Source: an uncultured Candidatus Saccharibacteria bacterium
Lineage (GTDB): Bacteria; Patescibacteriota; Minisyncoccia; Phycocordibacterales; UBA9973
Length of the DNA: 64,000 bases
NCBI GenBank assembly: GCA_964398205.1
Contig: CAYNLU010000001.1
Location: 417-64,416 of the forward strand
Direction of reading: 5' to 3'
Shown here: one piece after another, positions 4,920-62,368 of the stretch
Numbering within the stretch: position 1 is the first letter of the stretch
Layout of the letters: each line of letters begins with the position of its first letter
Notes under the pieces: model-generated
What the model was told of the DNA's origin: nothing
Database searches by the model: none
The model's input: only the letters and a program-made list of their open reading frames with translations
Made by a program: the position numbers and the translations under genes

Positions 4920-4993
4920 TCCGCCCTCTTGGACTCGAACCAAGGACACTTCGAGTATAAGTCGAATGCTCTACCAACTGAGCTAAGGGCGGA
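4920..4993 (-). tRNA. tRNA-Ile (anticodon UAU)
   Basis: Full cloverleaf on the minus strand: acceptor CCGCCCU/AGGGCGG, D-arm GCUC-AGUUGGUA-GAGC, anticodon arm UUCGA-CUUAUAC-UCGAA, 5-nt variable loop, T-arm CUUGG-UUCGAGU-CCAAG, discriminator A. CCA is not encoded. Confidence 0.8.
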
Positions 4994-5715: not shown

Positions 5716-7599
5716 TTACACTGCTTTAAATTCCTCAGATTTTTTCGGGACGATTCCAAAAGAAGAAATAAGCTCATCGTATTCGGCTTGCTCTAAAGTT
5801 TCTACTTCAATCAATTTCTTTGCGATAGCATCTAAGACTTCTTTTTTATCTTTTAGAACTTGCTCTGCTTTTTCTAATGCTTCGTGAATAATCTTTGAAA
5901 CTTCATTATCTATACTTTTCGCAACTTCTTCAGAGTAAGGCTTTTCGTCATTATTCCGTCCGATATATGCAATAGGTCCGATAACGTTAGACATACCCCA
6001 ACGTGTGACCATAGCGCGAGCCATATTAGTCGCAACTTGCAAATCTGAAGAAGGACCAGTAGTCAAATCTCCGAAAATCATTTTCTCGGCAACGTAACCT
6101 CCGAGAGACATAGCGATATCATCTTGGAATTCTTTACGAGATTGCAATTTTCTATCTTCTAGAGGAAGCTTCAAAGTATATCCTCCTGCAGATCCACGAG
6201 AAATAATCGAAACTTTATGCACAGGATCCGCATCAGGCAAAACCGAAGCCACAAGAGCGTGACCTGCTTCGTGATAAGCAGTTATTTCTTTTTCCTTTTT
6301 AGAAAGCAAATGACTCTTGCGTTCAGGTCCGAGCATAACTTTTTCGATAGCTTTTATCAAGTCTAATTGCGCAACCTTTTTCCTATCTTCACGAGCAGCA
6401 AGTATAGCTCCTTCATTCATCACAGAATATAAATCCGCCCCTGAAAATCCAGGAGTTCGTTCTGCTATAACTCGCAAATTTACATCCGCCTCTAAAGGCT
6501 TTTTCATAGAATGAATTTTAAGAATCTCTTCACGGTCATTACGATCAGGTAAATCTAAAGTTACCTTACGATCAAAACGTCCTGGGCGAACGAGTGCCGG
6601 ATCAAGTACGTCAGCTCGATTAGTCGCTGCCATAACGATAACTTTATCAGTCGGCTCGAAACCATCCATCTCAACTAAGATTTGATTTAAAGTTTGTTCA
6701 CGTTCATCATTACCTCCCCCTACTCCAGTTCCACGTACGCGTCCAATAGCATCTATCTCATCTACGAATATTATCGACGGAGATGCACGCTTTGCCATCT
6801 TGAAAAGATCTCGCACACGAGAAGCTCCAACTCCTACGAACATCTCCACGAATTCAGATCCTGAAAGATGAAAGAAAGGCACTCCTGCTTCCCCTGCTAC
6901 AGCTCGCGCAAGCATAGTTTTACCTGTACCTGGAGCACCGGTAAGCATAACTCCTTTAGGGATACGAGCTCCGATATCTAAGAACTTTTTAGGACTTTTT
7001 AAGAAATCTACTATCTCTCCAAGCTCTTCTTTAGCTTCTTTGGCTCCGGCTACGTCTTTAAAGGTAACGCGATTATTCTTATCATTTGGGTCTGTGATAC
7101 GAGCTTTAGATTGACCGAAAGTAAAAGCTTGCATACCTTGCCCTTTGACTTGACGAGAAAGATACCAAAAGAAAAATACAATAAATAATATAGGTAAAAG
7201 AAAAGGTAAAATATTTAATAAAACTACCATAAATCCGCTAGGATTTTTAACTTCGATATTTACGTTTTGAAGAGCAGTCTTATCTACTCCTAATTCGGAA
7301 AAGGTTTGAGAAAGCGATGCTTCAGCTTCTTTTTTAGTTTTTTTGATTTCTTCATTCAAGAAAACAGCTTCGATTTCTTCACCTTCTACTTTAATACTTT
7401 TAACTTGATTAGTAGATACAGCGTTTGCTAATTCAGAGATTGAGATTTCGGTAGTCTTTTTATTCTCTCCACTAATAGCGAGATAAAGAGCGGTCAAGAT
7501 CATCATAATCAAAATAGTAGAAACTATTGAAGATGATAAAGATCCTTCACTTTTTTTCTTTTTTTTATTACCCTTTTCATTTAAAAAATTTAAATTCAT
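5716..7599 (-). CDS. ftsH: ATP-dependent zinc metalloprotease FtsH
   Basis: N-terminal TM region, AAA+ Walker A GAPGTGKT, second region of homology, and protease HEAGHALV zinc motif. Confidence 0.95.
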
Positions 7600-8128: not shown

Positions 8129-8511
8129 GGGGATGCAAGGCATAGACAAGAGCCGTATTTATTTATGCATACCGAGATGGATTCTCTCGTAAACTAATCC
8201 AAAGCCTAATTGCAAAATTAGCATCTAAGGTAAAAGTAGCTTCTCCATACTTCAGTATGAAGAACTTTGCTTTTGCTCCAGCTTTCGCTTAAGGAAGCCG
8301 GTGTCAGTTTTATAGACTTCCGATATATAAAAACTGGCAACATTTATCGGGATAAGAAATATATTGCCGAATATGTTTACGAAAATTTAGGCTCGATTAA
8401 AAAATATTTTGCTTATTTAATAATTTTTTAATCTAAAACGATAAATATGCTAAGTATGTAGATTTAAATGAAGAAACCTTTTGCACGGGGGTTCGATTCC
8501 CCCCTTCTCCA
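8129..8511 (+). ncRNA. ssrA: tmRNA (SsrA)
   Basis: 5' GGGGAUGCAAGGCAUAGAC resembles the tmRNA 5' end and D-loop analogue. The 3' tRNA-like domain is GGGGG-UUCGAUU-CCCCC plus acceptor CUUCUCC-A. An internal tag ORF ends ...NFAFAPAFA-UAA (8281-8292). The smpB-ssrA linkage supports the call. Confidence 0.75.
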
Positions 8512-8943
8512 CAAAATAAAAAACCACTTTGTACTTTTACTTAGGTGGTTTTTTGTTTTTTCAATTTAATAACTTTAATAATTATTTTTGATTTAAAAAT
8601 ATAAATCAAGACTATTTTTACCTTAAATAAGAATTTTGGAGTAAAAAGTTTTTTTATTAAAAAAGTTACTAATTGCTCAGTTGAGTTCCTGTTAGGATCT
8701 AAATCTACAATATACTCATATACCGTAAACTCTAAAGTATCTCGAATTGATTTAATTATTTTTCTCATTTCCAAGAACAATTTGATACAAATCCTAGTAT
8801 AGCAAAATGTATAAAAATACGAAGATAACCCTTCATAAAGTTATCCACAGGTTAAAGGTTTTAAGTATTGATTCTATATATAAAAGGAGTATATTAATAC
8901 TTATATTAGTTCTTTCAAAAGACTTGTGAAAGTTAGGTTGTTG

Positions 8944-9543: not shown

Positions 9544-10917
9544 ATGAATAAACCAACTTTAACTGTTTCGGGATATCGCGGGATTTGGGGCGAGAGTTTG
9601 ACTACCGATATTGCTCGCGAATATACTCGCGCTTTTATTAAATACTTGAAAGAATACGTAGGCTTAGAAAGACCGAAGGTTCTAGTAGCTATCGACGGAC
9701 GCGAAAGCGGTAAAGAAATTAAAGAGAATATTATCGAAGAATTTTTAAAATATGGCGTCGATGTAATCAACGGCGAATTACTCCCTACCCCGGTACTAAT
9801 CTGGAGTATTAGAAAATTCAGCTATGACGGCGGAATAATGATAACCGCAAGTCACAACCCTCGCGAATATAACGGACTGAAATTTATAAATAAAAATGCT
9901 TCTTTCTTAAATCAAACTGAGATAAATCAGATAAATTTATATAAAGAGAAAAATGATTTAGAAGTCGCGAGCGTACCCGGAACTTTACTAAATAAAGAGA
10001 TAGAAATTCCAAACTTTGTAGATACTTACGTAGATAATCTGATTGCAAACTTTGATAAAGAATTAATAAGTAGCAAAAGGTTCAAGGTAGTTGCCGATAT
10101 GATAAATGCTTCGGCTTGTGCTATCGATCCGGATTTATTCGCGGAGCTTGGTATCGAACTTGTACCGCTTAATAATATTCCTGACGGAGACTTTGGGCAT
10201 AAACCGGAGCCACTTGCCGAAAACCTAACAAATTTATCAGAATTCGTAAAAGATAATAATGCTGATATTGGTTTTGCTCATGATCCAGATGGAGATAGAC
10301 TAGTCGTCGTTGATGAGCATGGTGAAATAATTTTTGAAGAATATACTTTGGCACTTTGCATAGAAAGCGTTTTGAGTAAAGAAGAAAATCAAGGTCGCGA
10401 TATTGTCGTAAATTTATCAACTTCAAATACTAATCGAGATATTGCAGAGAAATACGGTGGTACAACTTACCTTTCTCCAGTTGGAGAACTAAATGTAGTA
10501 GAAGAAATGAAAAAAAGAAACGCAATTATCGGAGGTGAAGGTAGCGGAGGGGTTATCTACCCTAAGCTCAACTTTGCTCGAGACGGTTTCGTGGCGATAT
10601 TACTCATACTCGATATGCTCGCTCGTGAAAATAAAAAGCTAAGTGAAAAAGTAGCTGAATTACCTAAATACTTTATGCAAAAAATTAAAGGAGAAATCAA
10701 AGAGAACTTTCCTAATAGTCTAGAGCAATTTAAAGAAACTTTTAAAGACGGCAAAATAACTGATACTGACGGATTGCGGTACGATTTCCCAGATAAATCC
10801 TTTATTCATTTTAGACGTTCGAATACAGAGCCAATCTGGCGTTTACTTGCAGAAGCAAAAGACGAAAATAGACTAAAAGAGCTAATAAAACAAGCACAGG
10901 AAATATTAAATGCTTAA
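9544..10917 (+). CDS. alpha-D-phosphohexomutase family protein (phosphoglucosamine mutase / phosphomannomutase-like)
   Basis: Active-site loop TASHNP, and SGYRGIWGE resembles the GxSGxRG motif. The 457-aa, four-domain length fits the family. Confidence 0.8.
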   Translation: MNKPTLTVSGYRGIWGESLTTDIAREYTRAFIKYLKEYVGLERPKVLVAIDGRESGKEIKENIIEEFLKYGVDVINGELLPTPVLIWSIRKFSYDGGIMITASHNPREYNGLKFINKNASFLNQTEINQINLYKEKNDLEVASVPGTLLNKEIEIPNFVDTYVDNLIANFDKELISSKRFKVVADMINASACAIDPDLFAELGIELVPLNNIPDGDFGHKPEPLAENLTNLSEFVKDNNADIGFAHDPDGDRLVVVDEHGEIIFEEYTLALCIESVLSKEENQGRDIVVNLSTSNTNRDIAEKYGGTTYLSPVGELNVVEEMKKRNAIIGGEGSGGVIYPKLNFARDGFVAILLILDMLARENKKLSEKVAELPKYFMQKIKGEIKENFPNSLEQFKETFKDGKITDTDGLRYDFPDKSFIHFRRSNTEPIWRLLAEAKDENRLKELIKQAQEILNA

Positions 10918-24876: not shown

Positions 24877-24984
24877 AATATTAAATATCGTCTTTTATTA
24901 GAAAGATATCTTGTGTATTTTCTTAAAGTTTCCTAAAAACCTTAAGGAGAAACACAGATCTTACCTAATAGCTAAGACTTCTAT

Positions 24985-25013
24985 ATACTAGCAAATCTAA
25001 ATAAATAAGTCAA
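24985..25013 (-). promoter_or_regulatory. sigma70-like promoter upstream of rpsN (TTGACT-N17-TAGTAT on the minus strand)
   Basis: The same -35/-10 arrangement recurs upstream of rpsS and tuf. Confidence 0.5.
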
Positions 25014-25052
25014 ATCTTAAGTCGCGATTGATAGGATAAAATAAAAAGGAAC

Positions 25053-25090
25053 GGGACTAAACCCGTTCCACCGCTTGTTTTTAACCTAAC
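25053..25090 (-). terminator. intrinsic terminator-like hairpin (GGAACGGG-ACUAAA-CCCGUUCC) followed by a U-tract on the minus strand
   Basis: 8-bp perfect stem inside the 335-bp rplE-rpsN spacer. Confidence 0.5.
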
Positions 25091-25179
25091 TAGATATCTC
25101 TTTTCATGTTTAAAACATTTTAAAAGTTAAACAATATATTTATACTAATTCAAGTTAATTATATTATAAAACCAAGACA

Positions 25180-25210
25180 AAATCAAAATCCCCTTTCGGG
25201 GATTTTTTAG
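25180..25210. terminator. hairpin AAAAUCCCCUUUCGGGGAUUUUUU immediately 3' of rplE
   Basis: Perfect stem with a GNRA-like loop. The U-tract is strongest on the plus strand, so it is a possible bidirectional element. Confidence 0.5.
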
Positions 25211-25212
25211 TT

Positions 25213-28547: not shown

Positions 28548-28901
28548 TTATTTCTTCTTAGCTCCTGCTGCTCCAGCGTTAGCTGTAGCTGCTTTTGCTT
28601 GAGCTATTTCGGCTTCTTTCTTCTTTTGCTCTAATTCTTTTTGCATTTTACCTCCGTGCTTAGTAAATTTCTTTGTAGGAGAAAATTCACCTAATTTGTG
28701 ACCTACCATATCTTCAGTTACTAAAACTTCGATATGGACTTTACCGTTATAAACACCAAAAGTAAAACCTAACATCTCAGGTGAAATAACAGCCGCTCTT
28801 TTCCAAGTTTTTATCATTGGAGTTTGTAGAGGGTTTTTACCTGCTATTTTCTTTAATAGTCTCTCGTCAACATTTATTCCTTTTTTGATTGATCTTGTCA
28901 T
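28548..28901 (-). CDS. rpsS: 30S ribosomal protein S19 with an Ala/Lys-rich C-terminal extension
   Basis: MTRSIKKGINVDERLLKKI...GHKLGEFSPTKKF is canonical S19. The extra tail is KKKEAEIAQAKAATANAGAAGAKKK. Confidence 0.9.
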   Translation of the reverse strand: MTRSIKKGINVDERLLKKIAGKNPLQTPMIKTWKRAAVISPEMLGFTFGVYNGKVHIEVLVTEDMVGHKLGEFSPTKKFTKHGGKMQKELEQKKKEAEIAQAKAATANAGAAGAKKK

Positions 28902-28940
28902 AATTTATATAAATAAAAAGCTCTAAAGCGAGCTTATACT

Positions 28941-28968
28941 ATACTAACAAATTTAAAAATAAAGTCAA
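28941..28968 (-). promoter_or_regulatory. sigma70-like promoter upstream of rpsS (TTGACT-N16-TAGTAT)
   Basis: The 24-nt string TAACAAATTTAAAAATAAAGTCAA is shared with the tuf upstream region. Confidence 0.5.
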
Positions 28969-29062
28969 CTACTCGCCAATATACCCTTGATTTTATTACT
29001 TCAAATAAAAAACCCGCTTTTTTTGAAATTATTTTTATAATATTTTTTAAAATAAAAAAGCC

Positions 29063-29434
29063 CTATGTTCTAAGGCTTTCGTTGTTTCTTGATAGCAATT
29101 GAAAATATTTATTTTGCCAATCTTCTACATTTTTAAGAGCTTTTTCTAATTTTTCTTCAAGCTCTTTAATTTTTGGATTTTCTTTTTTGGAACGCTTCCA
29201 GGAAGAGAGCTCCTCTTTAGACATCTTTTGAAATCTTAAAAGACGATTTTCCAATTCAGCAATGTAGGAAATATTTTTCCCATTTTCTATCTTAATTTTT
29301 TTAAGTTCTTCTTCAAGTAATTGAATTCCCTCACTTTCAGGGTGATTTCTTTTAATCTTTAAAAGAATCTTATCAAGATAAGGATCCTCTATTGTAAATC
29401 CCTTTTTAGTTTGTGATTTTCCCATGAATAACAA
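29063..29434 (-). CDS. hypothetical coiled-coil protein (123 aa)
   Basis: Heptad-rich, K/E-rich ORF between the repeat copy and the rpsS promoter. Confidence 0.45.
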   Translation of the reverse strand: MLFMGKSQTKKGFTIEDPYLDKILLKIKRNHPESEGIQLLEEELKKIKIENGKNISYIAELENRLLRFQKMSKEELSSWKRSKKENPKIKELEEKLEKALKNVEDWQNKYFQLLSRNNESLRT

Positions 29435-29471
29435 TTTTTATTGACTTTAACACAAAAATACATTTTTGTAA

Positions 29472-29508
29472 ACAAAAAACCACTAGTTTTGCTAGTGATT
29501 TTTGTTTT
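29472..29508. terminator. copy A of a 36-bp repeated terminator hairpin (ACAAAAAACCACTAGTTTTGCTAGTGATTTTTGTTTT)
   Basis: Nearly identical (one A indel) to copy B at 31621-31656. Stem CACUAG/CUAGUG with A and U tracts. Confidence 0.6.
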
Positions 29509-29532
29509 TTATAGTAAAATCTTCATTTTTTA

Positions 29533-29895
29533 TCGCTGTATTCTTGCAAAAACTATATCATTAGTTACAGCATCGAATAAAAGATGTAATCCATTTAAAT
29601 CAAAAACCCTACCTAATTTTAATTCAACATTTCCTGTCTTTAGATCAATAAATTCATAATAAAATATGTCACTAGTTAATCTTTTTTCAACCTTTCCTGT
29701 TTTTCTATCAGTAATAACTTCTTCGTAAACTTTAGTTGCTAGATTTTCCTTTCGATTATTGTCATCCAGAAAATAAAATTTATGTGCAGGAACATATGGG
29801 CAAGGTGTCGGATTAGGATCATTAGGAATAGGGTCGCATGGGTAATAAATTGCTTGTGACTCACCATAATAACCATCTAGTTTTTTGCCATTTCT
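29533..29895 (-). other. 121-codon -1-frame extension of the upstream CDS, open from the slippery site A_AAA_AAC (mRNA 29888-29880) to TAA at 29530-29532, with 115 codons beyond the zero-frame stop; no start codon of its own
   Basis: The frame contains no ATG, GTG or TTG. It begins exactly at the heptamer GCA AAA AAC that precedes the zero-frame TAG at 29877-29879. The translation is Pro/Tyr-rich (YYPCDPIPNDPNPTPCPYVP) followed by KTG repeats. Confidence 0.5.
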
Positions 29896-30614
29896 TCATA
29901 AGAAAAAACCGGTTTTAAATCCAACACCTCGGGCCATAAATGTCCGATTATTGTTAATTTATCATCACTTGGTATTATTACAATATTTTTATTTAAGAAA
30001 TCATTTTTTTCTTTATTGTATTCTAATACATTTATATTAGTTTCAACTTTTAATCCAGATGATATAAACACACCGTTTTTAGAAAAAATATTTTTTCCAC
30101 TAATATTTAGTTTATCATAGGAATTTAAACCGAAGAAATCTTTATTTTTATAGAGAAAATCTTTGTAATTTGTTGCGATTTCAAAAGCAAAAGTTTGTTT
30201 ATATTTATTATGATCCTGTAAAAAATCCTCAGTTGACTTGCCTAAATGTATTTTTTTTATTAAATCTTTATTTGTGGTTTCAATCTTTTTTATGAATCCG
30301 TACTCGTTTAAATCAACTGTCCAGTCTTTTCCATTTAGTAAAATAAAATCTTGGACTCGTTTTTGTATTTCTTTTTCATTGAGTTTTTTATAAACTGAAG
30401 TTTTATAATAAGAAGGAGTAGTTTCTAGTTTTTCCTTCACATTAGATATATCTATGAATTTATTTTGGTCATAAAAATCTTCTGTAATTTTAGTATCGTT
30501 TAGATTATTTTTTATAGAAGAATTGTCATTTATTTTAATAATTTTATCTTTAAATTTAAAAAAAATTACTAAAATTATTACAAAAACAGAAATCAAAACT
30601 ATGCTTTTTTTCAT
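29877..30614 (-). CDS. secreted or membrane-anchored hypothetical protein (245 aa as called; probably longer via the -1 frame)
   Basis: N-terminal signal/TM anchor KKSIVLISVFVIILVIFF. See the -1 frame continuation at 29533-29895. Confidence 0.55.
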   Translation of the reverse strand: MKKSIVLISVFVIILVIFFKFKDKIIKINDNSSIKNNLNDTKITEDFYDQNKFIDISNVKEKLETTPSYYKTSVYKKLNEKEIQKRVQDFILLNGKDWTVDLNEYGFIKKIETTNKDLIKKIHLGKSTEDFLQDHNKYKQTFAFEIATNYKDFLYKNKDFFGLNSYDKLNISGKNIFSKNGVFISSGLKVETNINVLEYNKEKNDFLNKNIVIIPSDDKLTIIGHLWPEVLDLKPVFSYEEMAKN

Positions 30615-30673
30615 GTTATTAATTATAACATAACATAAAAAATAAATTATTGAGGTAATTTTTAAGCAATTAT

Positions 30674-31597
30674 TTATTCTTCACAGAATATATTTTTAAT
30701 AGGTTTATCTATTGGTTTTGTACCAGAAACATCACTACAAAAATAACCTTCTTCATTCTCTAGCTTTACCGCAAAAGCCCAACCTTTATCTGGGACACTA
30801 AAACAATACATTTCTTTTATATTTTGTTCTTTTAAACTGTTCAAGGTAGTAGCAATATTTTCTGAGTAACCATTATTACCGGGATTAAACAAAGAACCTG
30901 ATACAGGAGCAAAACAATCTCCATTATTTTCAACTGCTCCATAGCCAACTTTATCATATAAAATATTTGCTGTCGTAAAAACAGAAGCCACAGTTTGTTT
31001 TATATAAAGATCTATTTCTTTTTTGGAAACCGATTTTTCAGGTACAACAAGTTTTAATTCATCTGGGCCTAGAATATAAGGAATATTACTTAAAACTTGA
31101 GGGTTTTTATCTACATATTCAATATATGAATTTTCTTGTTTTTCAATAGAAATAAAACCGAGTTCTTTTAAAAAATAAAGAGTGAAGAATAAATATAATA
31201 TATTGAAAATGATAATTATAATTGAAGTAATTATATTTAACTTTCCGTATTTATTTTTTCTAAAAATTATACCTATAATTAATTGAGGTAATGATAATAA
31301 GAAAATTATATTTAAGGCTATTGATGATGTATTTAACAATAAAACTAAAAGCCCTTTTGAAGTATCACTATGTGGTAAAAATCCAAGCAATACTCTTGCA
31401 ATGAGAAAAATAAGAATAGCAAAAGAAATTACAAAAAATATTATCTTTTCTATGCCTAGTCGATTTAGTGAAGAAAATGCTTGATTTAAATCCTCCTGAC
31501 TCCATCCTTCTTTCATTAAATTTTCTTGAATAACTTCTTCTTTTATCCCCTTCGCTTTTTCTTCTTTAACATATTTAATTAATTCTTCTGTAATCAT
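30674..31597 (-). CDS. hypothetical membrane protein (cytoplasmic N-domain, 4-5 TM helices, Cys-containing extracytoplasmic C-domain)
   Basis: The ORF track extends to 31624, but that start overlaps the terminator hairpin. The internal Met at 31597 (MITEEL...) is the more likely start. Confidence 0.5.
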   Translation of the reverse strand: MITEELIKYVKEEKAKGIKEEVIQENLMKEGWSQEDLNQAFSSLNRLGIEKIIFFVISFAILIFLIARVLLGFLPHSDTSKGLLVLLLNTSSIALNIIFLLSLPQLIIGIIFRKNKYGKLNIITSIIIIIFNILYLFFTLYFLKELGFISIEKQENSYIEYVDKNPQVLSNIPYILGPDELKLVVPEKSVSKKEIDLYIKQTVASVFTTANILYDKVGYGAVENNGDCFAPVSGSLFNPGNNGYSENIATTLNSLKEQNIKEMYCFSVPDKGWAFAVKLENEEGYFCSDVSGTKPIDKPIKNIFCEE

Positions 31598-31620
31598 TAA
31601 TCTAATTATAACCAAACAAA

Positions 31621-31656
31621 ACAAAAACCACTAGTTTTGCTAGTGATTTTTGTTTT
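31621..31656. terminator. copy B of the 36-bp repeated terminator hairpin, immediately 3' of rplB
   Basis: ACAAAAACCACTAGTTTTGCTAGTGATTTTTGTTTT. Separates rplB from the inserted cassette. Confidence 0.6.
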
Positions 31657-31660
31657 AGAA

Positions 31661-32500
31661 TTATTTCTTTTTACCAACTTTTCTTCGAGATACGATGAAT
31701 ACGTTTGAGTATTTCTTAGGAGTACGAGTTTTGCGTCCACCTGTAACCTTACCCCAAAGAGTTTTAGGTCTCTTAGTACCGCGACCTTGACGGCCTTCAC
31801 CTCCTCCGTATGGGTGATCTACTGGGTTCATAGCAGTACCACGAACCTTAGGACGAATACCCTTCCAACGTGAACGTCCAGCTTTACCGAAGTTTACTAA
31901 GTGATGCTCTTCATTTGAAACTGTACCAATACAAGCCCAAGCATTTTCAGAAACTTTACGAACTTCTGAAGATGGCATTTTAAGTGAAGTATAACCTTCA
32001 GCATTCGCTACAACTTGAGCAAAGATACCAGCAGAACGAGCTATTTTAGAACCTGTACCTGCTTTGATTTCAGCGTTATATACAAAAGTACCTACTGGAA
32101 TATTCTTTAAAGGAAGTCTATTTGCTGGAGTTAAAGAAGCTTTTTCAGATACTATGAAAGTTGTACCTGGCTTTACGTCTTTTGGTAAAACTACATATCT
32201 CTTTTCACCGTCTTTATAAACTGCAAGTCCAATAAAAGCACTGCGGTTTGGATCATATTCAACAGTTTTAATAACTGCAGGAATATCTTTTTTATCATAT
32301 TTAAAATCAACATCACGATAAAGTCTCTTGTGACCTCCTCCACGATGTCTTGAAGTAAGACGACCAGCGGAATTTCTTCCCATAGCTCTTTTGAAACCTC
32401 CTGTTAAGGATTTTTCTGGAGCTACTTTTGACAACACACCTTTATAGGTAACAGTTGTCATTTGTCTTCTTGATTTACTTGTAGGTTTGTATGTTTTCAT
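31661..32500 (-). CDS. rplB: 50S ribosomal protein L2
   Basis: 279 aa with canonical L2 motifs (GRNSAGRLTSRHRGGGHKRLYR, HPYGGGEG). Confidence 0.95.
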   Translation of the reverse strand: MKTYKPTSKSRRQMTTVTYKGVLSKVAPEKSLTGGFKRAMGRNSAGRLTSRHRGGGHKRLYRDVDFKYDKKDIPAVIKTVEYDPNRSAFIGLAVYKDGEKRYVVLPKDVKPGTTFIVSEKASLTPANRLPLKNIPVGTFVYNAEIKAGTGSKIARSAGIFAQVVANAEGYTSLKMPSSEVRKVSENAWACIGTVSNEEHHLVNFGKAGRSRWKGIRPKVRGTAMNPVDHPYGGGEGRQGRGTKRPKTLWGKVTGGRKTRTPKKYSNVFIVSRRKVGKKK

Positions 32501-34549: not shown

Positions 34550-35743
34550 CTATCCTAATATTTTTGTAACAACTCCTGCACCAACAGTTTTACCTCCTTC
34601 ACGGATAGCAAACTTTTGTGATTCTTCAAGAGCTACTGGAGTAACTAATTTAACTGTAATCTTAACATTGTCTCCAGGCATAACCATTTCCTTTCCTTCT
34701 TCTAACATAACTTCACCAGTTACGTCTGTTGTACGGATATAGAATTGAGGTTTATAACCTTTGAAGAATGGAGTGTGACGACCACCTTCTTCTTTCTTTA
34801 ATACATAGATTTCAGCTGTGAAATTATCATGAGGAGTAACTGTACCTGTCTTTGCTAGAACTTGTCCACGAGTAATGTCTTCTTTCTTAAGACCACGTAG
34901 CAAGATACCTGCATTGTCTCCAGCCATACCTTCTTGGAGGTTTTTGTTGAACATTTCGATACCTGTAACTGTAGATTTTACAGTTGCTTTAATACCAACG
35001 ATTTCAACTTCTTCACCTACTTTAACAACACCTCTTTCGATTTTACCAGTAACAACAGTTCCACGTCCTTCGATTGAGAAGATATCTTCTACAGGCATAA
35101 GGAAAGGTTTTGCTATATCACGTTCTGGAACTGGGATATAAGTATCAAGAGCGTTTGTTAATTCAAGGATTTTCTTTGCCCATTCGTCTTCAGCTGAAGT
35201 AGCTTCAAGACCTTTTAGAGCTGATCCACGGATTACAGGAGCACCTGCGCCGTCGAAACCTTGTTTTGTTAACAATTCACGGATTTCTTCTTCAACTAGG
35301 TCGATCATATCTTTATCATCAACCATATCACATTTGTTAAGGAAAACGATAATCTTTGGAACACCAACTTGTTTAGCAAGCAAAATGTGTTCACGAGTTT
35401 GTGGCATTGCACCGTCTGTTGCAGCAACTACTAAAATAGCACCGTCCATTTGGGCAGCACCTGTGATCATGTTTTTGATGTAGTCAGCGTGTCCTGGAGC
35501 ATCGATGTGAGCATAGTGACGAGTGTCTGTTGAGTACTCGTTGTGAGAAATGTTAATAGTAATACCACGAGCTTTTTCTTCTGGGGCATTGTCAATATCA
35601 TTAACACCTTTCATCTTAACTTGCTTACCTGCTAGGTTAAGACAGTTTAGGATAGCTGCTGTTAATGTTGTTTTACCGTGGTCAACGTGACCGATAGTAC
35701 CTACGTTTACGTGAGGTTTATCTCTTTTAAATTCTTCTGCCAT
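34550..35743 (-). CDS. tuf: elongation factor Tu
   Basis: [18 protein letters not shown]-like (DAPGHADY) and NKCD G-motifs, 397 aa. Confidence 0.97.
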
Positions 35744-35896
35744 ATATATTTTCTTTAATAATTAGGGCTTAATCCACGAGAAGTAAAAAGCTCTAACTAC
35801 TAATTATATAAATTATTAATAATATTAAGTTTGGTGACTAACCAAGCTTTTTTATAAAATTACCAACTAAAAAACTGCGAAAGTGCAGTTGTTTCT

Positions 35897-35924
35897 ATAT
35901 TAACAAATTTAAAAATAAAGTCAA
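35897..35924 (-). promoter_or_regulatory. sigma70-like promoter upstream of tuf (TTGACT-N16-TAATAT), followed by a 5'-UTR hairpin ACUGCGAAAGUGCAGU
   Basis: Consensus-like -35 and -10 boxes. The same 24-nt string occurs upstream of rpsS. Confidence 0.55.
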
Positions 35925-35979
35925 ATTGTGAATAAATTAAAATGCCAGGTTTTAGAATAATCTAAAACCTGGCTAAATC

Positions 35980-36285
35980 TTAAGGCAAGCTAAGTTGTTG
36001 TTTTAAAGAAAACATAGCATTATTATAAAGCTTTTGAGCCAAAATCGGCTTTTTCTGCTTTATATTAAAAATTCTTTTATTAATTTCAGGAATCTTATTT
36101 TCCTTGAAAAATAAAGAAATCTGGTTGTCATCCATTAATGGAACATACAAACAGTCTCCTGTTCTGTAAAAAAATAATTTTAAAAAATCTTCAAAAATTA
36201 AAGCATTTCTAGGTACTCCTAACTTGTCTTTAAGTAATGAATAGGCTGCGTTTTTGGTGTAAACACCATCGTTTTTACTTAACAT
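35980..36285 (-). CDS. hypothetical protein (101 aa)
   Basis: ORF followed by a 10-bp hairpin GCCAGGUUUU...AAAACCUGGC. Confidence 0.4.
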   Translation of the reverse strand: MLSKNDGVYTKNAAYSLLKDKLGVPRNALIFEDFLKLFFYRTGDCLYVPLMDDNQISLFFKENKIPEINKRIFNIKQKKPILAQKLYNNAMFSLKQQLSLP

Positions 36286-36368
36286 AATTACATGTTTTAA
36301 GTTTTAAAAAAGAATTATTTCAAAATTAGCTTACCATATATAGGTAAAAAGTAAACCTGGCAAATTAT

Positions 36369-36932
36369 TTAATCAATATCTTCATAGACTTTATAATAAG
36401 CGAAACCTAAATTTTCCTTATGATTCTTAAATTCCATCACTTCAACTACTTCTACTTTGGATGTTTTTCGGTCTTGAATTACAAGCAAAGTAGCTATTTT
36501 AATATCAAATTCGGTTTTTTTATCAATTTTTAGTTGTTTTTCAGCTTTTTTATTATTATCTTTCGTATCAGGTAAAGATAATTCATACGTATCAGTAAAA
36601 AACTCAAATAAAAGTTTTCCACCACTAGAATTTTTAACGTCTTTAACATTGTCTAAAGCAATTGGGGGAATTTGATTTTTTTGGATATATTCATCCAAAA
36701 AATACATATTTTCCTGGGAACAGGAATTGAATAATTCCCTTTCCCAGGCAATATATTTTTCTATTTCTTTTATCCAATAAATTGGAGGTTTATTGTCATA
36801 GAAAGAATCCCCAATTATTTTGGTTTTTTGCTGAATCCGTTCTTGATCCTGCTTACTATCTTTAATCAAAAGAATATTTTCTTTAAACAAAAGAAAGAAT
36901 TTTTTTGTGAGCTTAATAATTAAAATTAACAT
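36369..36932 (-). CDS. hypothetical protein (187 aa)
   Basis: ORF between the ABC exporter operon and tuf. No motif recognised. Confidence 0.45.
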   Translation of the reverse strand: MLILIIKLTKKFFLLFKENILLIKDSKQDQERIQQKTKIIGDSFYDNKPPIYWIKEIEKYIAWERELFNSCSQENMYFLDEYIQKNQIPPIALDNVKDVKNSSGGKLLFEFFTDTYELSLPDTKDNNKKAEKQLKIDKKTEFDIKIATLLVIQDRKTSKVEVVEVMEFKNHKENLGFAYYKVYEDID

Positions 36933-37041
36933 ATTTAATTTTTAAAGGTACAATATAATTTATATCAAATAAATGATAACACATTTTATTGAAAATGTAA
37001 ATCTAGTGCAACGAAATACCTATAATATATTAACTATAAAT

Positions 37042-50769: not shown

Positions 50770-53067
50770 TTATTGATTTAAAAGTTTAATAGTATTAAAT
50801 CCTAGGATTCCATCTACCTTGAGATTATTAGCTTTTTGGAATTTCTTCAAAGCAAGCTCGGTATTATATCCAAAGAAAGTTATTTCTTTAGAATTTTCTG
50901 TGCCTTTTACTTTATAGCCTTTTTCATTCAATTTCTTTTGTAAACATTTTACTTCTTGATTGTCGATCCCCTTCATTAGATTTTTAGATAAAGTACAAGA
51001 ATTTGATGTTAAAGTAGTTTCTGCCCCTAAAACCTTACTAGGTCCACTATGAGTACCACCTACACATTTATAACTAAAATGATTGCTATAAAAAGTTTCG
51101 CTAGCGCCAGTAGAAAGATTTATCCAATTAGGAATATATTCTTCTTTGTAATATTCGAGTGAAGTAGTAGCTGGATACCATTTTTTACAGAAGTTTAGTA
51201 TTTCATTTGTATGAACATAACCACTATTTAAATCAGTTACCCAAAAACCTTTATCATTCAAATATTGAGAAAGTTTAGTCCCCCAAATACTTACTCGAGG
51301 AGTTAAATCTAAAGAAGCAGTATTAGCAACCGGAGGATTAATTACTGTAATATTGCAAGATTGACCAGTAGTCATACTATAACCATTATTAGAAGCACAT
51401 CCAGGTAGATAATTAGGATTTTGAGTTGCATTAATAGTTATTGATTTTTCTACTAGTAAAGGACCTCCTTGATTTTTACAGGTTAAGGTATAAGTTTTTG
51501 ATCCCAAGAAATCTATATTGATAGTTAAGTTATCTTCTTCATCTTTACTACCAGTCCATGCACCCGAAGCTTCACAGAGTGATACCCCAGTAGCTTTCCA
51601 AGATAAATTAGTTTGACCTCCAAAATACAAATTAGTTGGATTTGCGGTAAATGCTAAACTCGCAGTTGGAGGTATAGGGTAACAATTTGGATAAGTACCA
51701 GTCGTACCGGTAGGACAAACTGTTTTTATACAATTTGGATAAGTGCCTGTATAACCTGAAGGACAAAATACTGGATCAACTATATAAACCCCAACTTGAA
51801 CACTATTAGCTGCAATTCCCCCAATTCCGGTACAAGTTAACGTGAAAGTTGTAGTTGTATTTAAATTATAAATAATTTCAGAACCACTTGTAGGTTTTGT
51901 TCCAGACCATCCACCCCCTGCAACACAAGAAGTAGCATTAGTAGAATTCCAAGTTAAAGTAACAGCTTGACCTGACTCTACACTATTTGTAGATGCATTA
52001 ATATTTACAGTAATTATTCCTGGTTTTTTAACTTCAACTGTTCTTGAAATAACTTTACTTATTCCTACAGATTCTCCAGTACAAGTTAATGTAAACTTCG
52101 TTGGAGTTGTAATATTTGAAATTACTTCGCTACCTGAGAGAGGTTTAGCTCCAGTCCAACCATCGCTTGCAGTACACTCTTTTGCATTTTTTGTACTCCA
52201 AGTTAGAGTTGTACTACCCCCATAATCAATTCCAAGAGGATTTATATTGAAAGTTATAATAGGTATAATTGGATTTGCGACTGATACTGTTTTAGAAGCA
52301 AAAGCAGAACCTTGAGTATTGTTACAAGTTATACTAAATATAGTAGGAAGTATTAAATTTGAAACTACTTCGCTACCTGAGAGAGGTTTATTACCTGACC
52401 ATCCTCCGCTAGCAATACAAGAATCTGCATTAGTAGAAGTCCAAGTTAAAGTTGTACTACCTCCGTAACTAACTCCAATAGGGTCTAGAGAGAAATTAAC
52501 ACTTGGTTTAGGTATAAATACAGGTAAACAGTTTGGCCAAGTTCCAGTCATTCCTTCTGGGCAAGATTTAACACAACTACCCCCAGTATCTACACCAGTC
52601 TCATCTCCGTTTAAAATACCATCAAAACAACTTTCAGTTATAGTTGTACAATTTCCACCTTGATCAATTCCAGTTTCTCCCCAATCTTGAATACCGTTAA
52701 AACAATTTTCATTTGAAGTTTCTGCACAACTCAAATCTTTAATTTTTTCTTTAGTCAAAGAACCTACGAAACCTAAAGCTGGTTTTATATTATTAGCTTT
52801 TTGAAAATTAAGCACAGCTTTCAAAGTAGAAGTTCCAAAATATCCACTAGGATTAACACTTAAATAACCTTGAGATTTTAGATATTTTTGCAAAATTGTA
52901 ACTTCACCTTTTTTATTAATATCTCTATCTCCGAATTTAAGATTATTTTGTAAATCTATACATTCCGAAGTACTACCGCTCCCAGTCTGAGCTTTCGCAA
53001 GATTAGGTGCTAATACAAAACTAAACAAAAGGATAAAAACTAACGAGATTTTTAAATATTTTTTCAT
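50770..53067 (-). CDS. secreted surface protein with N- and C-terminal peptidoglycan-binding-like domains, a Cys-rich module and four tandem Ig-like repeats
   Basis: Signal peptide. PG_binding-like segments (YLKSQGY...GYFGTSTLKAVLNFQKANNI and KFQKANNLKVDGILGFNTI). Repeated 70-aa units (...GGSTTLTW.T.NA..C.ASGGWSG.KP.SGSE...). Confidence 0.6.
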   Translation of the reverse strand: MKKYLKISLVFILLFSFVLAPNLAKAQTGSGSTSECIDLQNNLKFGDRDINKKGEVTILQKYLKSQGYLSVNPSGYFGTSTLKAVLNFQKANNIKPALGFVGSLTKEKIKDLSCAETSNENCFNGIQDWGETGIDQGGNCTTITESCFDGILNGDETGVDTGGSCVKSCPEGMTGTWPNCLPVFIPKPSVNFSLDPIGVSYGGSTTLTWTSTNADSCIASGGWSGNKPLSGSEVVSNLILPTIFSITCNNTQGSAFASKTVSVANPIIPIITFNINPLGIDYGGSTTLTWSTKNAKECTASDGWTGAKPLSGSEVISNITTPTKFTLTCTGESVGISKVISRTVEVKKPGIITVNINASTNSVESGQAVTLTWNSTNATSCVAGGGWSGTKPTSGSEIIYNLNTTTTFTLTCTGIGGIAANSVQVGVYIVDPVFCPSGYTGTYPNCIKTVCPTGTTGTYPNCYPIPPTASLAFTANPTNLYFGGQTNLSWKATGVSLCEASGAWTGSKDEEDNLTINIDFLGSKTYTLTCKNQGGPLLVEKSITINATQNPNYLPGCASNNGYSMTTGQSCNITVINPPVANTASLDLTPRVSIWGTKLSQYLNDKGFWVTDLNSGYVHTNEILNFCKKWYPATTSLEYYKEEYIPNWINLSTGASETFYSNHFSYKCVGGTHSGPSKVLGAETTLTSNSCTLSKNLMKGIDNQEVKCLQKKLNEKGYKVKGTENSKEITFFGYNTELALKKFQKANNLKVDGILGFNTIKLLNQ
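51450..52500 (-). repeat. intragenic tandem repeats (about four 210-230 bp units) encoding Ig-like modules of the surface protein
   Basis: Repeated protein motif LTW(T/S)STNA..C.A.GGW(S/T)G.KP.SGSE. Coordinates are approximate. Confidence 0.5.
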
Positions 53068-57205: not shown

Positions 57206-57278
57206 GGTGCCTATCGGGAGTCGAACCCGAATTAGCGGAACCACAACCCGCTGTGTTAACCATTACACCATAGGCACC
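57206..57278 (-). tRNA. tRNA-His (GUG) with an encoded G-1
   Basis: Acceptor GUGCCUA/UAGGCAC with an extra 5' G and discriminator C73. Anticodon arm GCGGG-UUGUGGU-UCCGC. T-arm UCGGG-UUCGACU-CCCGA. Confidence 0.8.
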
Positions 57279-60868: not shown

Positions 60869-62368
60869 TTAATTTGATAATTCAGATTCAAGAATTTTTA
60901 CTCTTTCTTTGAGAGCTTCTAATCGAGCACGATATCCTGCTATTTCATCTTGTTGCTCTTGTATGGCTTTCGTCATAGGGGCAATTAACTCAGTATACCT
61001 CATAGTCTTACCTCTAAACTCCGTATTATCAGTCAAAACAATATTAGTATTCTTACCTATAGCACTTTCTACTTCTTGAGCTATGAAGCCGTAGTCTATA
61101 CCATTACCTTGTTTCATAGTATATGATACTGGACGTAGTTTCTTTATGAATTCTAGACCTAAGTCTGAGTCGTTTATGTTTTCTTTGAGGCGGAGGTCGG
61201 AAGGGAAAGACCAAGCCACCTGTAAATCTATAGAAGTTACATTAGTATCACCAATACGAACAGCATTAGAATTATTTGCCACTGCCCCATACCCAATAGC
61301 AATTGCATTACTAAGACTACTTGTTGAAGTCTCTGCATCATATCCTATAGCAGTATTATTATTACCAGTTACATTTGTAGATAAAGCACTAGTTCCAACT
61401 GCTGTATTAGAATCTCCAGTATTATAGTAAAGTGTATTCATTCCTAAACTAGTATTATCATTACCTGGTGGATTAGCTAATAACGAATTTGTACCGATAG
61501 CTGTATTATTATTACCTACAGAGTTATAAAGCAAAGTCGCATAACCAGCTGCTGTATTATTAGAACCTGTATTTATTTTCCATGAAGAATAACTTCCTAA
61601 AGCTGTATTATTAGAACCAGAAGAAAGACTTATCATAGAAGAATAACCAACTCCTGTATTATTAATACCGGTTACAGTTAAATTACCAGCACTTAATCCA
61701 GCAAATATATTACCTGTACCTGTATTATGCATAAACAAAGTAGAACCTCTATAAATATTTGTATTACTACCTAATACAACATTATCTAAAACATTAAACA
61801 AAGAAACTACGGCTCCTGCATCAACCCAACCATTATTTCCAGAACTCGCTCCATTTACTGCTGTTGTTACAAAAGCAGTGGTAGCTAATTTATCGCTATT
61901 ATCATTACTACTTGGAGTTGGGGCTTGCAATGAACCTAAAAAGGTAGGTCCATCTAAATTAGCTTTTAAGTTTAAAGCAGAATTAAGATCAGCTTGCTGA
62001 GTATATAAGTCACCGTTCACATTACCAATACTACCCCAAACAGTTCCAGACCCAGCTCCCAAGTTCTGCCAAGTAGCATTACCATAAGCATCAGAAGTTA
62101 GAACTTTACTAGCTCCTGCTCCTGTAGGAATTTGAATAGTATTATCAAATATTACCGGGCCCAATACTCGAAAACCATTTACTACCATCAAACCATTTTT
62201 AGTTTGATAATCAGGCCCTACATTGATAGGATAAGAAATATTATTATTAGGTGGAGTAGAGCTTGTATTAAAAAATAGTGCTGAAACCGAGTCCGCAAAA
62301 GAAAACACCATCATAAATAAAATGATTAAAGTAATTAATATTTTATGTTTTAAAAAGTTATTTGGCAT
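60869..62368 (-). CDS. fibre-like surface protein with Gly/Asn/Thr repeats and a C-terminal peptidase S74 (tail-fibre intramolecular chaperone) domain; paralog 1
   Basis: Signal/TM anchor, KVLTSDA.G.ATW and LATTAFV motifs, repeats G.NNTA.G, and C-terminal SDLRLKENI...YGFIAQEVE chaperone-domain signature followed by a coiled-coil. Confidence 0.7.
   Translation of the reverse strand: MPNNFLKHKILITLIILFMMVFSFADSVSALFFNTSSTPPNNNISYPINVGPDYQTKNGLMVVNGFRVLGPVIFDNTIQIPTGAGASKVLTSDAYGNATWQNLGAGSGTVWGSIGNVNGDLYTQQADLNSALNLKANLDGPTFLGSLQAPTPSSNDNSDKLATTAFVTTAVNGASSGNNGWVDAGAVVSLFNVLDNVVLGSNTNIYRGSTLFMHNTGTGNIFAGLSAGNLTVTGINNTGVGYSSMISLSSGSNNTALGSYSSWKINTGSNNTAAGYATLLYNSVGNNNTAIGTNSLLANPPGNDNTSLGMNTLYYNTGDSNTAVGTSALSTNVTGNNNTAIGYDAETSTSSLSNAIAIGYGAVANNSNAVRIGDTNVTSIDLQVAWSFPSDLRLKENINDSDLGLEFIKKLRPVSYTMKQGNGIDYGFIAQEVESAIGKNTNIVLTDNTEFRGKTMRYTELIAPMTKAIQEQQDEIAGYRARLEALKERVKILESELSN
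61016..61204. repeat. 189-bp segment 100% identical to 62519-62707 (encodes the S74 chaperone core of both paralogs)
   Basis: Verified by direct reading of both copies. Flanks diverge on both sides. Confidence 0.85.

Follow-up and report, generated by a model that had tools for sequence, protein, structure and literature searches.

A strain-variable accessory-gene bay between rplB and rpsS in the S10 operon of uncultivated Patescibacteria, and a duplicated predicted terminator within it

Introduction

In the E. coli paradigm, the genes of the S10 operon follow one another in the order rpsJ-rplC-rplD-rplW-rplB-rpsS-rplV-rpsC-rplP-rpmC-rpsQ. Few gene orders of prokaryotes are as well conserved as that of the S10-spc ribosomal cluster, on which the '16 ribosomal protein' phylogenies are built and from which contig-level marker sets for uncultivated bacteria are largely drawn. 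We have analyzed a stretch of 64 kb from an uncultured member of the Patescibacteria (assembly GCA_964398205.1, contig CAYNLU010000001.1, positions 417 to 64,416; this whole stretch is referred to as the window), in which the operon is interrupted between rplB, encoding uL2, and rpsS, encoding uS19. The interruption holds three genes that we designate MEM, SEC and CC, and two copies of a hairpin, H1, arranged as a direct repeat. Comparison with related genomes leads us to view the junction as probably a clade-wide and strain-variable bay for accessory genes that is insulated by a terminator and a promoter, is free of mobile elements and changes its content mainly through homologous recombination. 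One module of this bay, MEM and SEC, has the duplicated hairpin at its edges, and the hairpin may mediate gain or loss of the two genes.

The general principle has precedents. Hotspots of horizontal gene transfer that lie between core genes and are diversified by double homologous recombination were described by Oliveira et al. (2017, PMC5635113), and those among them that are free of mobile elements share with the bay the fixed core flanks, the fast turnover of genes and the lack of mobile-element genes. The likeness extends further, as allele differences in the bay break at conserved flanks, turnover occurs within a species at a flank identity of 99.1-99.8%, and the lineage plausibly takes up DNA, with ComEC genes occurring as cargo in relatives. 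The bay differs from these hotspots in that it sits inside the universally conserved S10 operon, spans a class-level clade rather than one species, and is delimited by a predicted terminator and a duplicated promoter of ribosomal-protein type. A second precedent is the region HVR2 of SAR11, which parts the 23S from the 5S gene of the rRNA operon, clade-wide and in streamlined genomes (PMC3448164). Like the bay, it is a clade-conserved hypervariable island that divides an operon of the translation machinery and is rich in unknown membrane proteins and paralogues. However, HVR2 comprises about 50 or more genes and has rRNA flanks, whereas the bay, 0.02 to more than 6 kb in length, lies between protein genes and contains 0-9 genes, and the organisms are unrelated.

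Integron arrays also consist of co-oriented accessory genes with imperfect palindromes between them and a content that varies among strains. In the bay, in contrast, there is no intI nearby and there are no conserved core sites, the hairpins resemble terminators and the cassettes bear promoter-like sites. Unlike in the canonical S10 operon, the upstream transcript is predicted to end behind rplB, with rpsS being read from a copy of the tuf promoter. A general study of genomic islands in Patescibacteria is available (PMC12455944), and our literature search found no description of an rplB|rpsS split or hotspot in the candidate phyla radiation. The hotspot principle as such is known; what appears to be undescribed is a hotspot within the S10 operon that extends over a whole clade.

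The rplB-rpsS junction in the window

The ribosomal gene order is canonical on both sides of the gap. The 2,759 bp from rplB to rpsS are non-ribosomal and contain MEM, SEC and CC, all on the minus strand like the operon itself. Downstream of the bay follow rpsS, rplV and rpsC through to rplE, and then rpsN and rpsH. As evidenced by Pfam matches to both flanking genes and by the open reading frame (ORF) and gene calls, the statement of an earlier note on this DNA that three non-ribosomal genes part rplB from rpsS is correct. The genes concerned are, in the order of transcription:

34550-35743, minus strand: tuf, start of the upstream unit tuf-rpsJ-rplC-rplD-rplW-rplB
31661-32500, minus strand: rplB (uL2), last gene of the upstream unit; Pfam Ribosomal_L2_N (E 1e-30) and Ribosomal_L2_C (E 3e-48)
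30674-31597, minus strand: MEM, 307 aa, with an N-terminal soluble domain of 45 aa, 3-4 transmembrane (TM) helices and a C-terminal domain of about 110 aa with 4 Cys
29877-30614, minus strand: SEC part a, 245 aa, with an N-terminal signal or anchor helix; ends GCA AAA AAC TAG
29880-29886, minus strand: SEC slip heptamer A_AAA_AAC (A6 tract), -1 shift, with the 0-frame stop directly after it
29530-29885, minus strand: SEC part b, continuation in the -1 frame over about 117 codons, with Cys and Pro-rich stretches; stop at 29530-29532
29063-29425, minus strand: CC, 120 aa, a coiled-coil protein with no TM segment (ORF and gene calls)
28548-28901, minus strand: rpsS (uS19), first gene of the downstream unit rpsS...rplE; Pfam Ribosomal_S19 (E 1.5e-30)

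An assembly artefact is ruled out, as 4.2 kb of identical sequence (100%) that span both copies of the repeat were recovered in independent MEGAHIT and SPAdes assemblies of other samples. The Logan short-k-mer contigs of this strain break exactly at both repeat copies; an exact repeat of at least 32 nt would by itself cause such breaks.

Variation of the junction across the clade

For comparison we used 80 species-representative loci chosen by L2 similarity (at least 64% identity), with gap lengths counted on the 63 loci that contain both genes. The closest species representatives are Patescibacteria (Nomurabacteria, Paceibacterota and similar) with a uL2 identity of at most 83%. At the L2|S19 junction the median gap was 950 bp; it exceeded 300 bp in 45/63 loci and 1 kb in 27/63, and was 200 bp or less in 16/63. 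The gap ranged from about 20 bp to 5.3 kb, nine further loci showed no rpsS within 6 kb, and the only tight junction among the 63, that of L100, measured 2 bp from stop to start codon, or about 22 bp by alignment ends. Minor hotspots were seen at S10|L3 (median 55 bp, above 300 bp in 13/61 and above 1 kb in 8/61) and at L5|S14 (median 169 bp, above 300 bp in 10/29 and above 1 kb in 6/29). The other 14 junctions, including L23|L2 and S19|L22, had medians from -10 to 82 bp, with 0-1 gaps each above 300 bp and one in total above 1 kb. What the earlier note had presented as an unusual one-off break of the operon is thus a hypervariable cargo site, split in most relatives.

The cargo of these bays falls into 175 protein clusters, 161 of them singletons. 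By Pfam it includes dgkA in nine cases, DUF3298 in five and PemK in four, as well as histidine kinases, ComEC and Fic; the widest gaps also hold housekeeping genes. Co-orientation with the operon was found for 109 of 149 cargo ORFs, and 61 of the 149 have a TM-like segment. In 56 of 79 relatives, a permissive scan run with no false-positive control located a hairpin with a T-rich tail no more than 90 nt downstream of rplB. MEM, SEC and CC themselves are absent from all 80 loci, and one or two close homologues turn up among 5.8 billion clustered proteins, which supports the lineage-specificity that had been proposed for the three genes.

Alleles of close relatives and their breakpoints

Closer relatives were drawn from the 90%-identity uL2 cluster, and rplB DNA identity places them in three sister groups. 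Group A consists of the window and a species about 94% identical to it. Strains L109-L111 of the latter are empty (240-242 bp), and L112, which is 99.2% identical to L110 in rplB, carries H1 followed by a MEM homologue. Group B is a species with several alleles, among them empty ones of 258 bp (L105, L107, L108) as well as filled ones of the type rplB-hairpin-MEM-MEM2-rpsS, in L106 and in L116-L118 (about 95% identity). Two more alleles of this group are disrupted: L101 has a truncated MEM and then another membrane-protein gene, and in L120 MEM is cut after 12 codons and joined to unrelated genes (L120 913-1100). In group C, L104 shows the order rplB, a short MEM-family gene, mazE, pemK, a 150-aa gene and rpsS, while L102 has rplB, a CC homologue and mazE, so that the two differ in the first cargo gene. 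MEM-family genes adjoin rplB in all three sister groups.

In the more distant L114 (uL2 83%), the bay measures 7.5 kb and holds nine genes, among them three MEM-family paralogues and a PemK toxin; a 752-aa PG-binding/FKBP protein in it bears the MEM C-terminal domain. A hairpin family, CTGCGGAAG...CTTCCGCAG, with 72-78% identity follows 3-4 different genes of this bay (1792-1846, 6028-6082, 6446-6481), and boundary element and promoter, both described below, are present.

The empty sites of the same genus (L105, L107, L108, L109-L111, L113) measure 240-296 bp and share one order: the rplB stop codon, a CCCGMAAGGG-type hairpin and its T-run, a spacer rich in A and T, the boundary element, the promoter, a leader hairpin and rpsS. 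Positions 28902-29028 of the window correspond to the right-hand end of this architecture.

Strains whose rplB is at least 99% identical, but which have an empty spacer of 240-300 bp or other cargo, allow the breakpoints to be located. The filled L106 (MEM and MEM2) and the empty L105 are 99.8% identical over 3,027 bp, up to the last sense codon of rplB, and the stop codon itself already differs (TAG vs TAA). L112, with H1 and MEM, matches the empty L110 with its other hairpin at 99.1% until 12 nt past the rplB stop. In L102, the sequence reads rplB stop, TTCTAAAA, one hairpin, GTTTACAAAA..., CC, which is the left flank of H1 copy A of the window joined to the right flank of copy B. The 2,148-bp unit of MEM, SEC and one hairpin is therefore a presence/absence difference edged by the arms of the repeat, and the arrangement in L102 is the product expected from recombination between the two repeat copies of the window, with the proviso that its hairpin, GCCCGCAAGGGC, differs from H1. 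The earlier proposal that the repeat is the footprint of an insertion stands insofar as the copies lie exactly at the presence/absence boundaries with respect to L102; duplication of a target terminator is just one of several possible origins. Repeats around cargo were also found in the bays of L104 (69 nt), L059 (32 nt, promoter-like, around the first cargo gene) and L031 (56 nt), but at the sensitivity used repeated regulatory sequences were not found in most bays.

Two side observations concern these loci. The bay of L120 is a rearrangement breakpoint that may part rplB from rpsS, and one of the joined genes resembles scpA, by eye only. The three MEM paralogues of L114 (4123-4258, 6993-7128, 7912-8047) have a common 5' end of 136 nt, two of them at 97%.

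The duplicated hairpin

The two copies of H1 were located by repeat search and RNA folding, copy A also by a terminator scan:

31618-31656, minus strand: H1 copy A, AAAACAAAAAUCACUAG-CAAAA-CUAGUGGUUUUUGUUUU, beginning 4 nt past the rplB stop codon
29470-29508, minus strand: H1 copy B, second arm of the direct repeat, beginning 21 nt past the stop codon of SEC part b

By their coordinates the copies bracket the two larger inserted genes, MEM and SEC, as had been noted before. The repeat is real, although the 36 bp first given for it need a small correction, one base being added in the second copy: both copies agree exactly over 34 nt (29475-29508 = 31623-31656), and with one indel in the A/T run the repeat reaches 39 nt, at a copy spacing of 2,148 bp. 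In a scan of the 64-kb window, a 32-nt H1 pattern matched exactly at 29477-29508 and 31625-31656; no third copy was present in the window with 3 mismatches allowed, and 0/100 shuffles gave any match. The JGI metagenome contigs and IMG/VR each returned 0 matches to H1.

Both copies have the layout A-tract, stem, U-tract on the coding strand, with folding energies of -21.7 kcal/mol (z -5.95) for copy A and -16.6 kcal/mol (z -3.39) for copy B, and in both the U-tract, UUUUUGUUUU, directly follows the core stem on its 3' side. The stem comprises 17-18 pairs, of which only four are G-C, with a core of 6 bp (CACUAG/CUAGUG); the hairpins of relatives at the same position are more GC-rich. Between relatives, the hairpin that follows rplB shows a compensatory change, AACCC...GGGTT vs AGCCC...GGGCT. 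The terminator claimed to follow rplB directly is thus recognizable as a stable candidate stem-loop with a U-tract 4 nt past the stop codon, and H1 is most likely a terminator at which the transcripts of rplB and of MEM-SEC would both end. This 13-kb stretch as a whole is enriched in terminator-like sites, with 21 found vs 4.8 expected. No other duplicated terminator occurs in the 64 kb, where the remaining terminators are all unlike one another.

Predicted promoters and boundary elements

Further regulatory features of the insert are the following:

31605-31610, minus strand: TATAAT box of MEM, 7 nt upstream of the start codon; a putative promoter with no convincing -35 element
29444-29472, minus strand: promoter-like site of CC, TTTACA-N17-TAAAGT with an upstream TG, abutting H1 copy B (promoter scan)
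29056-29080, minus strand: terminator-like hairpin overlapping the CC stop codon (terminator scan, fold)
28981-29028, minus strand: right-hand boundary element, A7-GCGGG-T6 ... AATAAAATCAAGGGTAT, immediately upstream of the rpsS promoter
28939-28968, minus strand: predicted rpsS promoter, TTGACTTTATTTTTAAATTTGTTAGTATAG, TTGACT-N16-(TG)T-TAGTAT (promoter scan), identical in relatives
28918-28935, minus strand: leader stem-loop between the rpsS promoter and the start codon (terminator scan, RNA fold)

The predicted rpsS promoter is identical to the site in front of tuf (35895-35924) at 29/30 positions and similar to that of rpsN (24985-25013), all on the minus strand. This match and the conservation in relatives make it likely that rpsS indeed has a promoter of its own, as the earlier note had it. 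As the promoter sequence is shared by rpsS and tuf and, in a similar form, by rpsN, the ribosomal cluster is predicted to comprise three or more separate units served by one promoter type. The leader stem downstream of the rpsS promoter is kept paired in relatives despite substitutions (G-U wobble), and could stabilize the 5' end of the mRNA or serve as an attenuator. The tuf promoter is likewise trailed by a leader hairpin (35873-35890, minus strand), with a U-run after the stem at both sites.

The boundary element, A7-GYGG(G)-T6...AATAAAATCAAGGGTAT in its general form, was found in every relative at the genus level, whether the site is empty or filled, and also in L114. Copies of it in L104, 69 nt in length (8336-8403 and 9688-9755), lie on both sides of the module formed by mazE, pemK and the 150-aa gene. 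Within the cargo, the spacing of 7 nt between TATAAT box and ATG of MEM recurs in L112 and in L106 and L116, and the MEM mRNA may be leaderless. The promoter-like site of CC is kept in L102 as TTTACA-N17-TAAGGT.

Cargo genes

In searches of Pfam, NCBIfam, PADLOC and PHROGs, MEM, SEC and CC yielded nothing meaningful, the best result being a sub-threshold match of STING_LBD to CC (E 0.0085); a PDB sequence search, made for MEM alone, gave no match either. MEM contains three TM-like segments according to the segment scan. Its near-full-length homologues, P0003 (63% identity; L101, L106 and L116) and P0023 (40%; L114), are all encoded between rplB and rpsS. At 63% identity the TM and Cys positions are invariant, which argues that MEM is a real gene. 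An exhaustive HMM search further characterized MEM as a mosaic of two separately occurring domains: the N-terminal domain of 45 aa and the Cys-containing C-terminal domain of 110 aa each occur on their own in about 140 other unannotated proteins. Pfam analysis of ten proteins that carry one of the MEM domains gave no functional clue, and the AlphaFold model of MEM is poor (pLDDT 54.7). The C-terminal motif (YFCSD / YWCVDSTG) may resemble type IV pilin-like domains.

SEC was described before as the gene of a secreted protein. It is present and encodes an N-terminal hydrophobic helix, but the reading frame is interrupted at GCA AAA AAC TAG. The -1 frame becomes open just two codons ahead of the A6 tract and then runs for 121 codons through a region of 27% GC, so that the break in SEC should be either recent or decoded. 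The window in which both frames overlap comprises 15 nt and includes an in-frame slippery heptamer of the form X_XXY_YYZ. The heptamer is unchanged in the independent assemblies L001, L002 and L019, and part b is 100% conserved in the strain variant L103. With respect to known -1 programmed frameshift sites and phase-variable tracts, SEC is alike in that it shifts at an in-frame A_AAA_AAC followed by a 0-frame stop and encodes a probable surface protein. It differs from frameshift sites in lacking a strong downstream structure, the best fold after the heptamer being an unconvincing stimulatory element at -8.7 kcal/mol, and the simple loss of 1 nt from an A7 run would look no different. The frame change may accordingly reflect a fixed 1-nt deletion in an A7 run, which would make SEC a pseudogene, a phase-variable tract or a -1 frameshift site. 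Among the 5.8 billion clustered proteins SEC has no homologue but itself and is thus an ORFan.

For CC, there is a single homologue, P0005, with 71% identity, encoded directly after rplB in L102, and an alignment scan of metagenome contigs gave no further relatives. The roles of the cargo are probably cell-surface functions.

Origin and turnover of the bay

The mechanism we propose for the bay starts from a division of the S10 operon after rplB, where the upstream unit would end at an intrinsic terminator, and from a restart of rpsS at a strong promoter of ribosomal-protein type followed by a leader hairpin. DNA lying between the rplB terminator and the rpsS promoter would leave the expression of ribosomal proteins undisturbed, so that the spacer could gather accessory genes, each module bringing its own promoter-like site and terminator. 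Incoming DNA would be swapped by homologous recombination, with the near-invariant ribosomal-protein genes and the boundary elements as homology arms, and local duplication or deletion between repeated regulatory sequences would provide an added route. The direct repeat of H1 would mark the edges of the 2,148-bp module of MEM and SEC and offer a substrate for losing it. As H1 comes together with MEM in L112 while the sister strains have another hairpin, replacement of the whole allele fits the data better than insertion at a resident hairpin.

Several points weigh against this interpretation. The activity of terminators and promoters is deduced from consensus matches, folding energy and conservation, and the mostly A-U stem of H1 with its core of 6 bp is weaker than a classic GC-rich terminator. 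The search for H1 copies covers 64 kb of this genome. The argument for homologous recombination consists in the breakpoints at conserved flanks. As the comparison loci were picked by their L2 similarity, they do not set the taxonomic limits of the trait. Finally, the window, L101 and L102 are nearly equidistant (92.5-93.7% at the 3' end of rplB), so that they give no direction for the change in MEM and SEC, gain or loss.

A different history would involve a single duplicative insertion into an ancestor of the order rplB-H1-CC, with MEM and SEC entering at the terminator, either through a Campbell-type crossover of a circular DNA bearing H1 or with a target duplication of about 39 nt. It would account for the exact match between the repeat arms and the ends of the segment that L102 lacks, where a single hairpin has the flanks A and B, and for the analogous long flanking repeats in L104, L059 and L031. 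However, L102 represents another species (about 92.5% at the rplB 3' end) with a different hairpin and is not a true empty site, and the joint occurrence of H1 and MEM in L112, whose sisters are empty with another hairpin, indicates that H1 is not a resident target. MEM-family genes directly follow rplB in three sister clades, so that MEM may be ancestral and L102 the product of a deletion, and 34-39 nt far exceed the target duplications known for transposases. On balance we judge such an insertion unlikely. Transposon insertion in the usual sense involves a transposase, terminal inverted repeats and a short target duplication of about 2-15 bp. That the insert is the remnant of a transposon, prophage or integrative element, the repeat being a target-site duplication or attL/attR, is suggested by direct repeats around a non-core block of lower GC (21-30% vs 30-40%), but seems extremely improbable: Pfam, PHROGs and PADLOC revealed no transposase, integrase or phage genes, no integrase or transposase is annotated over about 10 kb to each side of the insert, and there are no terminal inverted repeats. 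Neither did a blastn comparison of the insert with phage and plasmid collections give a match, nor were relatives of MEM found in the viral contigs of IMG/VR. The repeat itself is a terminator hairpin at a place where relatives have a terminator as well, and composition says nothing on the origin, since non-ribosomal genes elsewhere in the window (35800-37000) are as low in GC as the insert; the overall GC of the window is 32.7%.

Site-specific recombination was considered in two forms. An integron-like cassette array, in which the hairpins would be attC-like sites for some recombinase yet to be identified, appears quite improbable. It would agree with the predominant co-orientation of the cargo (109/149 ORFs), with the locus-specific hairpin copies that part modules in the window and in L114, and with the turnover of cargo at the level of strains. 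On the other hand, no integrase or recombinase, and no intI-type integrase in particular, is annotated in these flanks of about 10 kb on each side, and the hairpins of relatives (H1, the CCCGMAAGGG type and the family of L114) have no core motif in common, attC R/L core boxes included. Their A- and U-tracts are typical of terminators, many bays have no repeated hairpin, and the cargo genes have promoter-like sites of their own. In addition, breakpoints at the rplB stop codon fit homologous recombination better than cassette exchange. In a broader form, the hairpins would be the recombination sites of an undescribed cassette-exchange system of Patescibacteria whose recombinase has yet to be recognized or is encoded elsewhere, which we regard as improbable. 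If it held, the bay would be an array of cassettes in the chromosome, where modules for surface proteins and for toxin-antitoxin pairs are taken up, rearranged and lost from hairpin to hairpin, and the A6 tract of SEC could add an on/off layer, phase-variable or by frameshift. The repeat could also be incidental, two independent terminators having been kept alike by gene conversion or selection with no part in gain or loss. Both copies stand in terminator positions and fold well, and the window and L112 have almost the same H1 although the coding sequence of MEM diverged (74% aa identity over 35 residues), which suggests a constraint on the hairpin itself. Yet the lack of any other duplicated terminator in the 64 kb speaks against it, the match to the indel boundaries of L102 would then be chance, and we find this highly improbable.

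Consequences for genome analysis

Returning to the bay as a recombination-driven site for accessory genes, the predicted pair of terminator and promoter would allow a streamlined genome to accept new genes safely at an operon junction. In these organisms, assemblies are prone to break at rplB|rpsS, which invites chimeric concatenations of marker genes. Conversely, the near-universal rplB and rpsS bracket strain-specific membrane, secreted and toxin-antitoxin genes, and conserved primers or read recruitment over rplB-rpsS could sample accessory genes, probably for host interaction, of uncultivated Paceibacteria in environmental DNA.

Further observations in the window and in relatives

The rplE|rpsN junction is also open in the window (24877-25212, 336 bp), where hairpins resembling terminators for both directions lie at 25048-25069 and 25185-25206. 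In relatives this junction is a secondary site of insertion, with an ABC transporter gene on the opposite strand in L110. In four other loci (L097 5906-11500, L061 5864-10810, L062 and L090), multi-copy intergenic repeats run across the ribosomal-protein cluster, some of them built of 9-nt tandem units such as AAGCTAACG. The uS19 encoded by rpsS has a C-terminal extension of about 30 residues rich in Ala and Lys (28548-28640, minus strand), a feature already known for Parcubacteria (PMC9297842).

Elsewhere in the window, a tmRNA gene was identified at 8129-8514 (Rfam RF00023, 118 bits), and two tRNA genes lie at 4920-4992 and 57206-57277. A direct repeat of 300 nt, 60932-61231 vs 62435-62734, shows 86% identity with an exact core of 189 nt at a distance of 1.5 kb, and a tandem-like repeat of 188 nt is located at 52080-52510. 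Both probably represent paralogous or internally repetitive genes unrelated to the bay.

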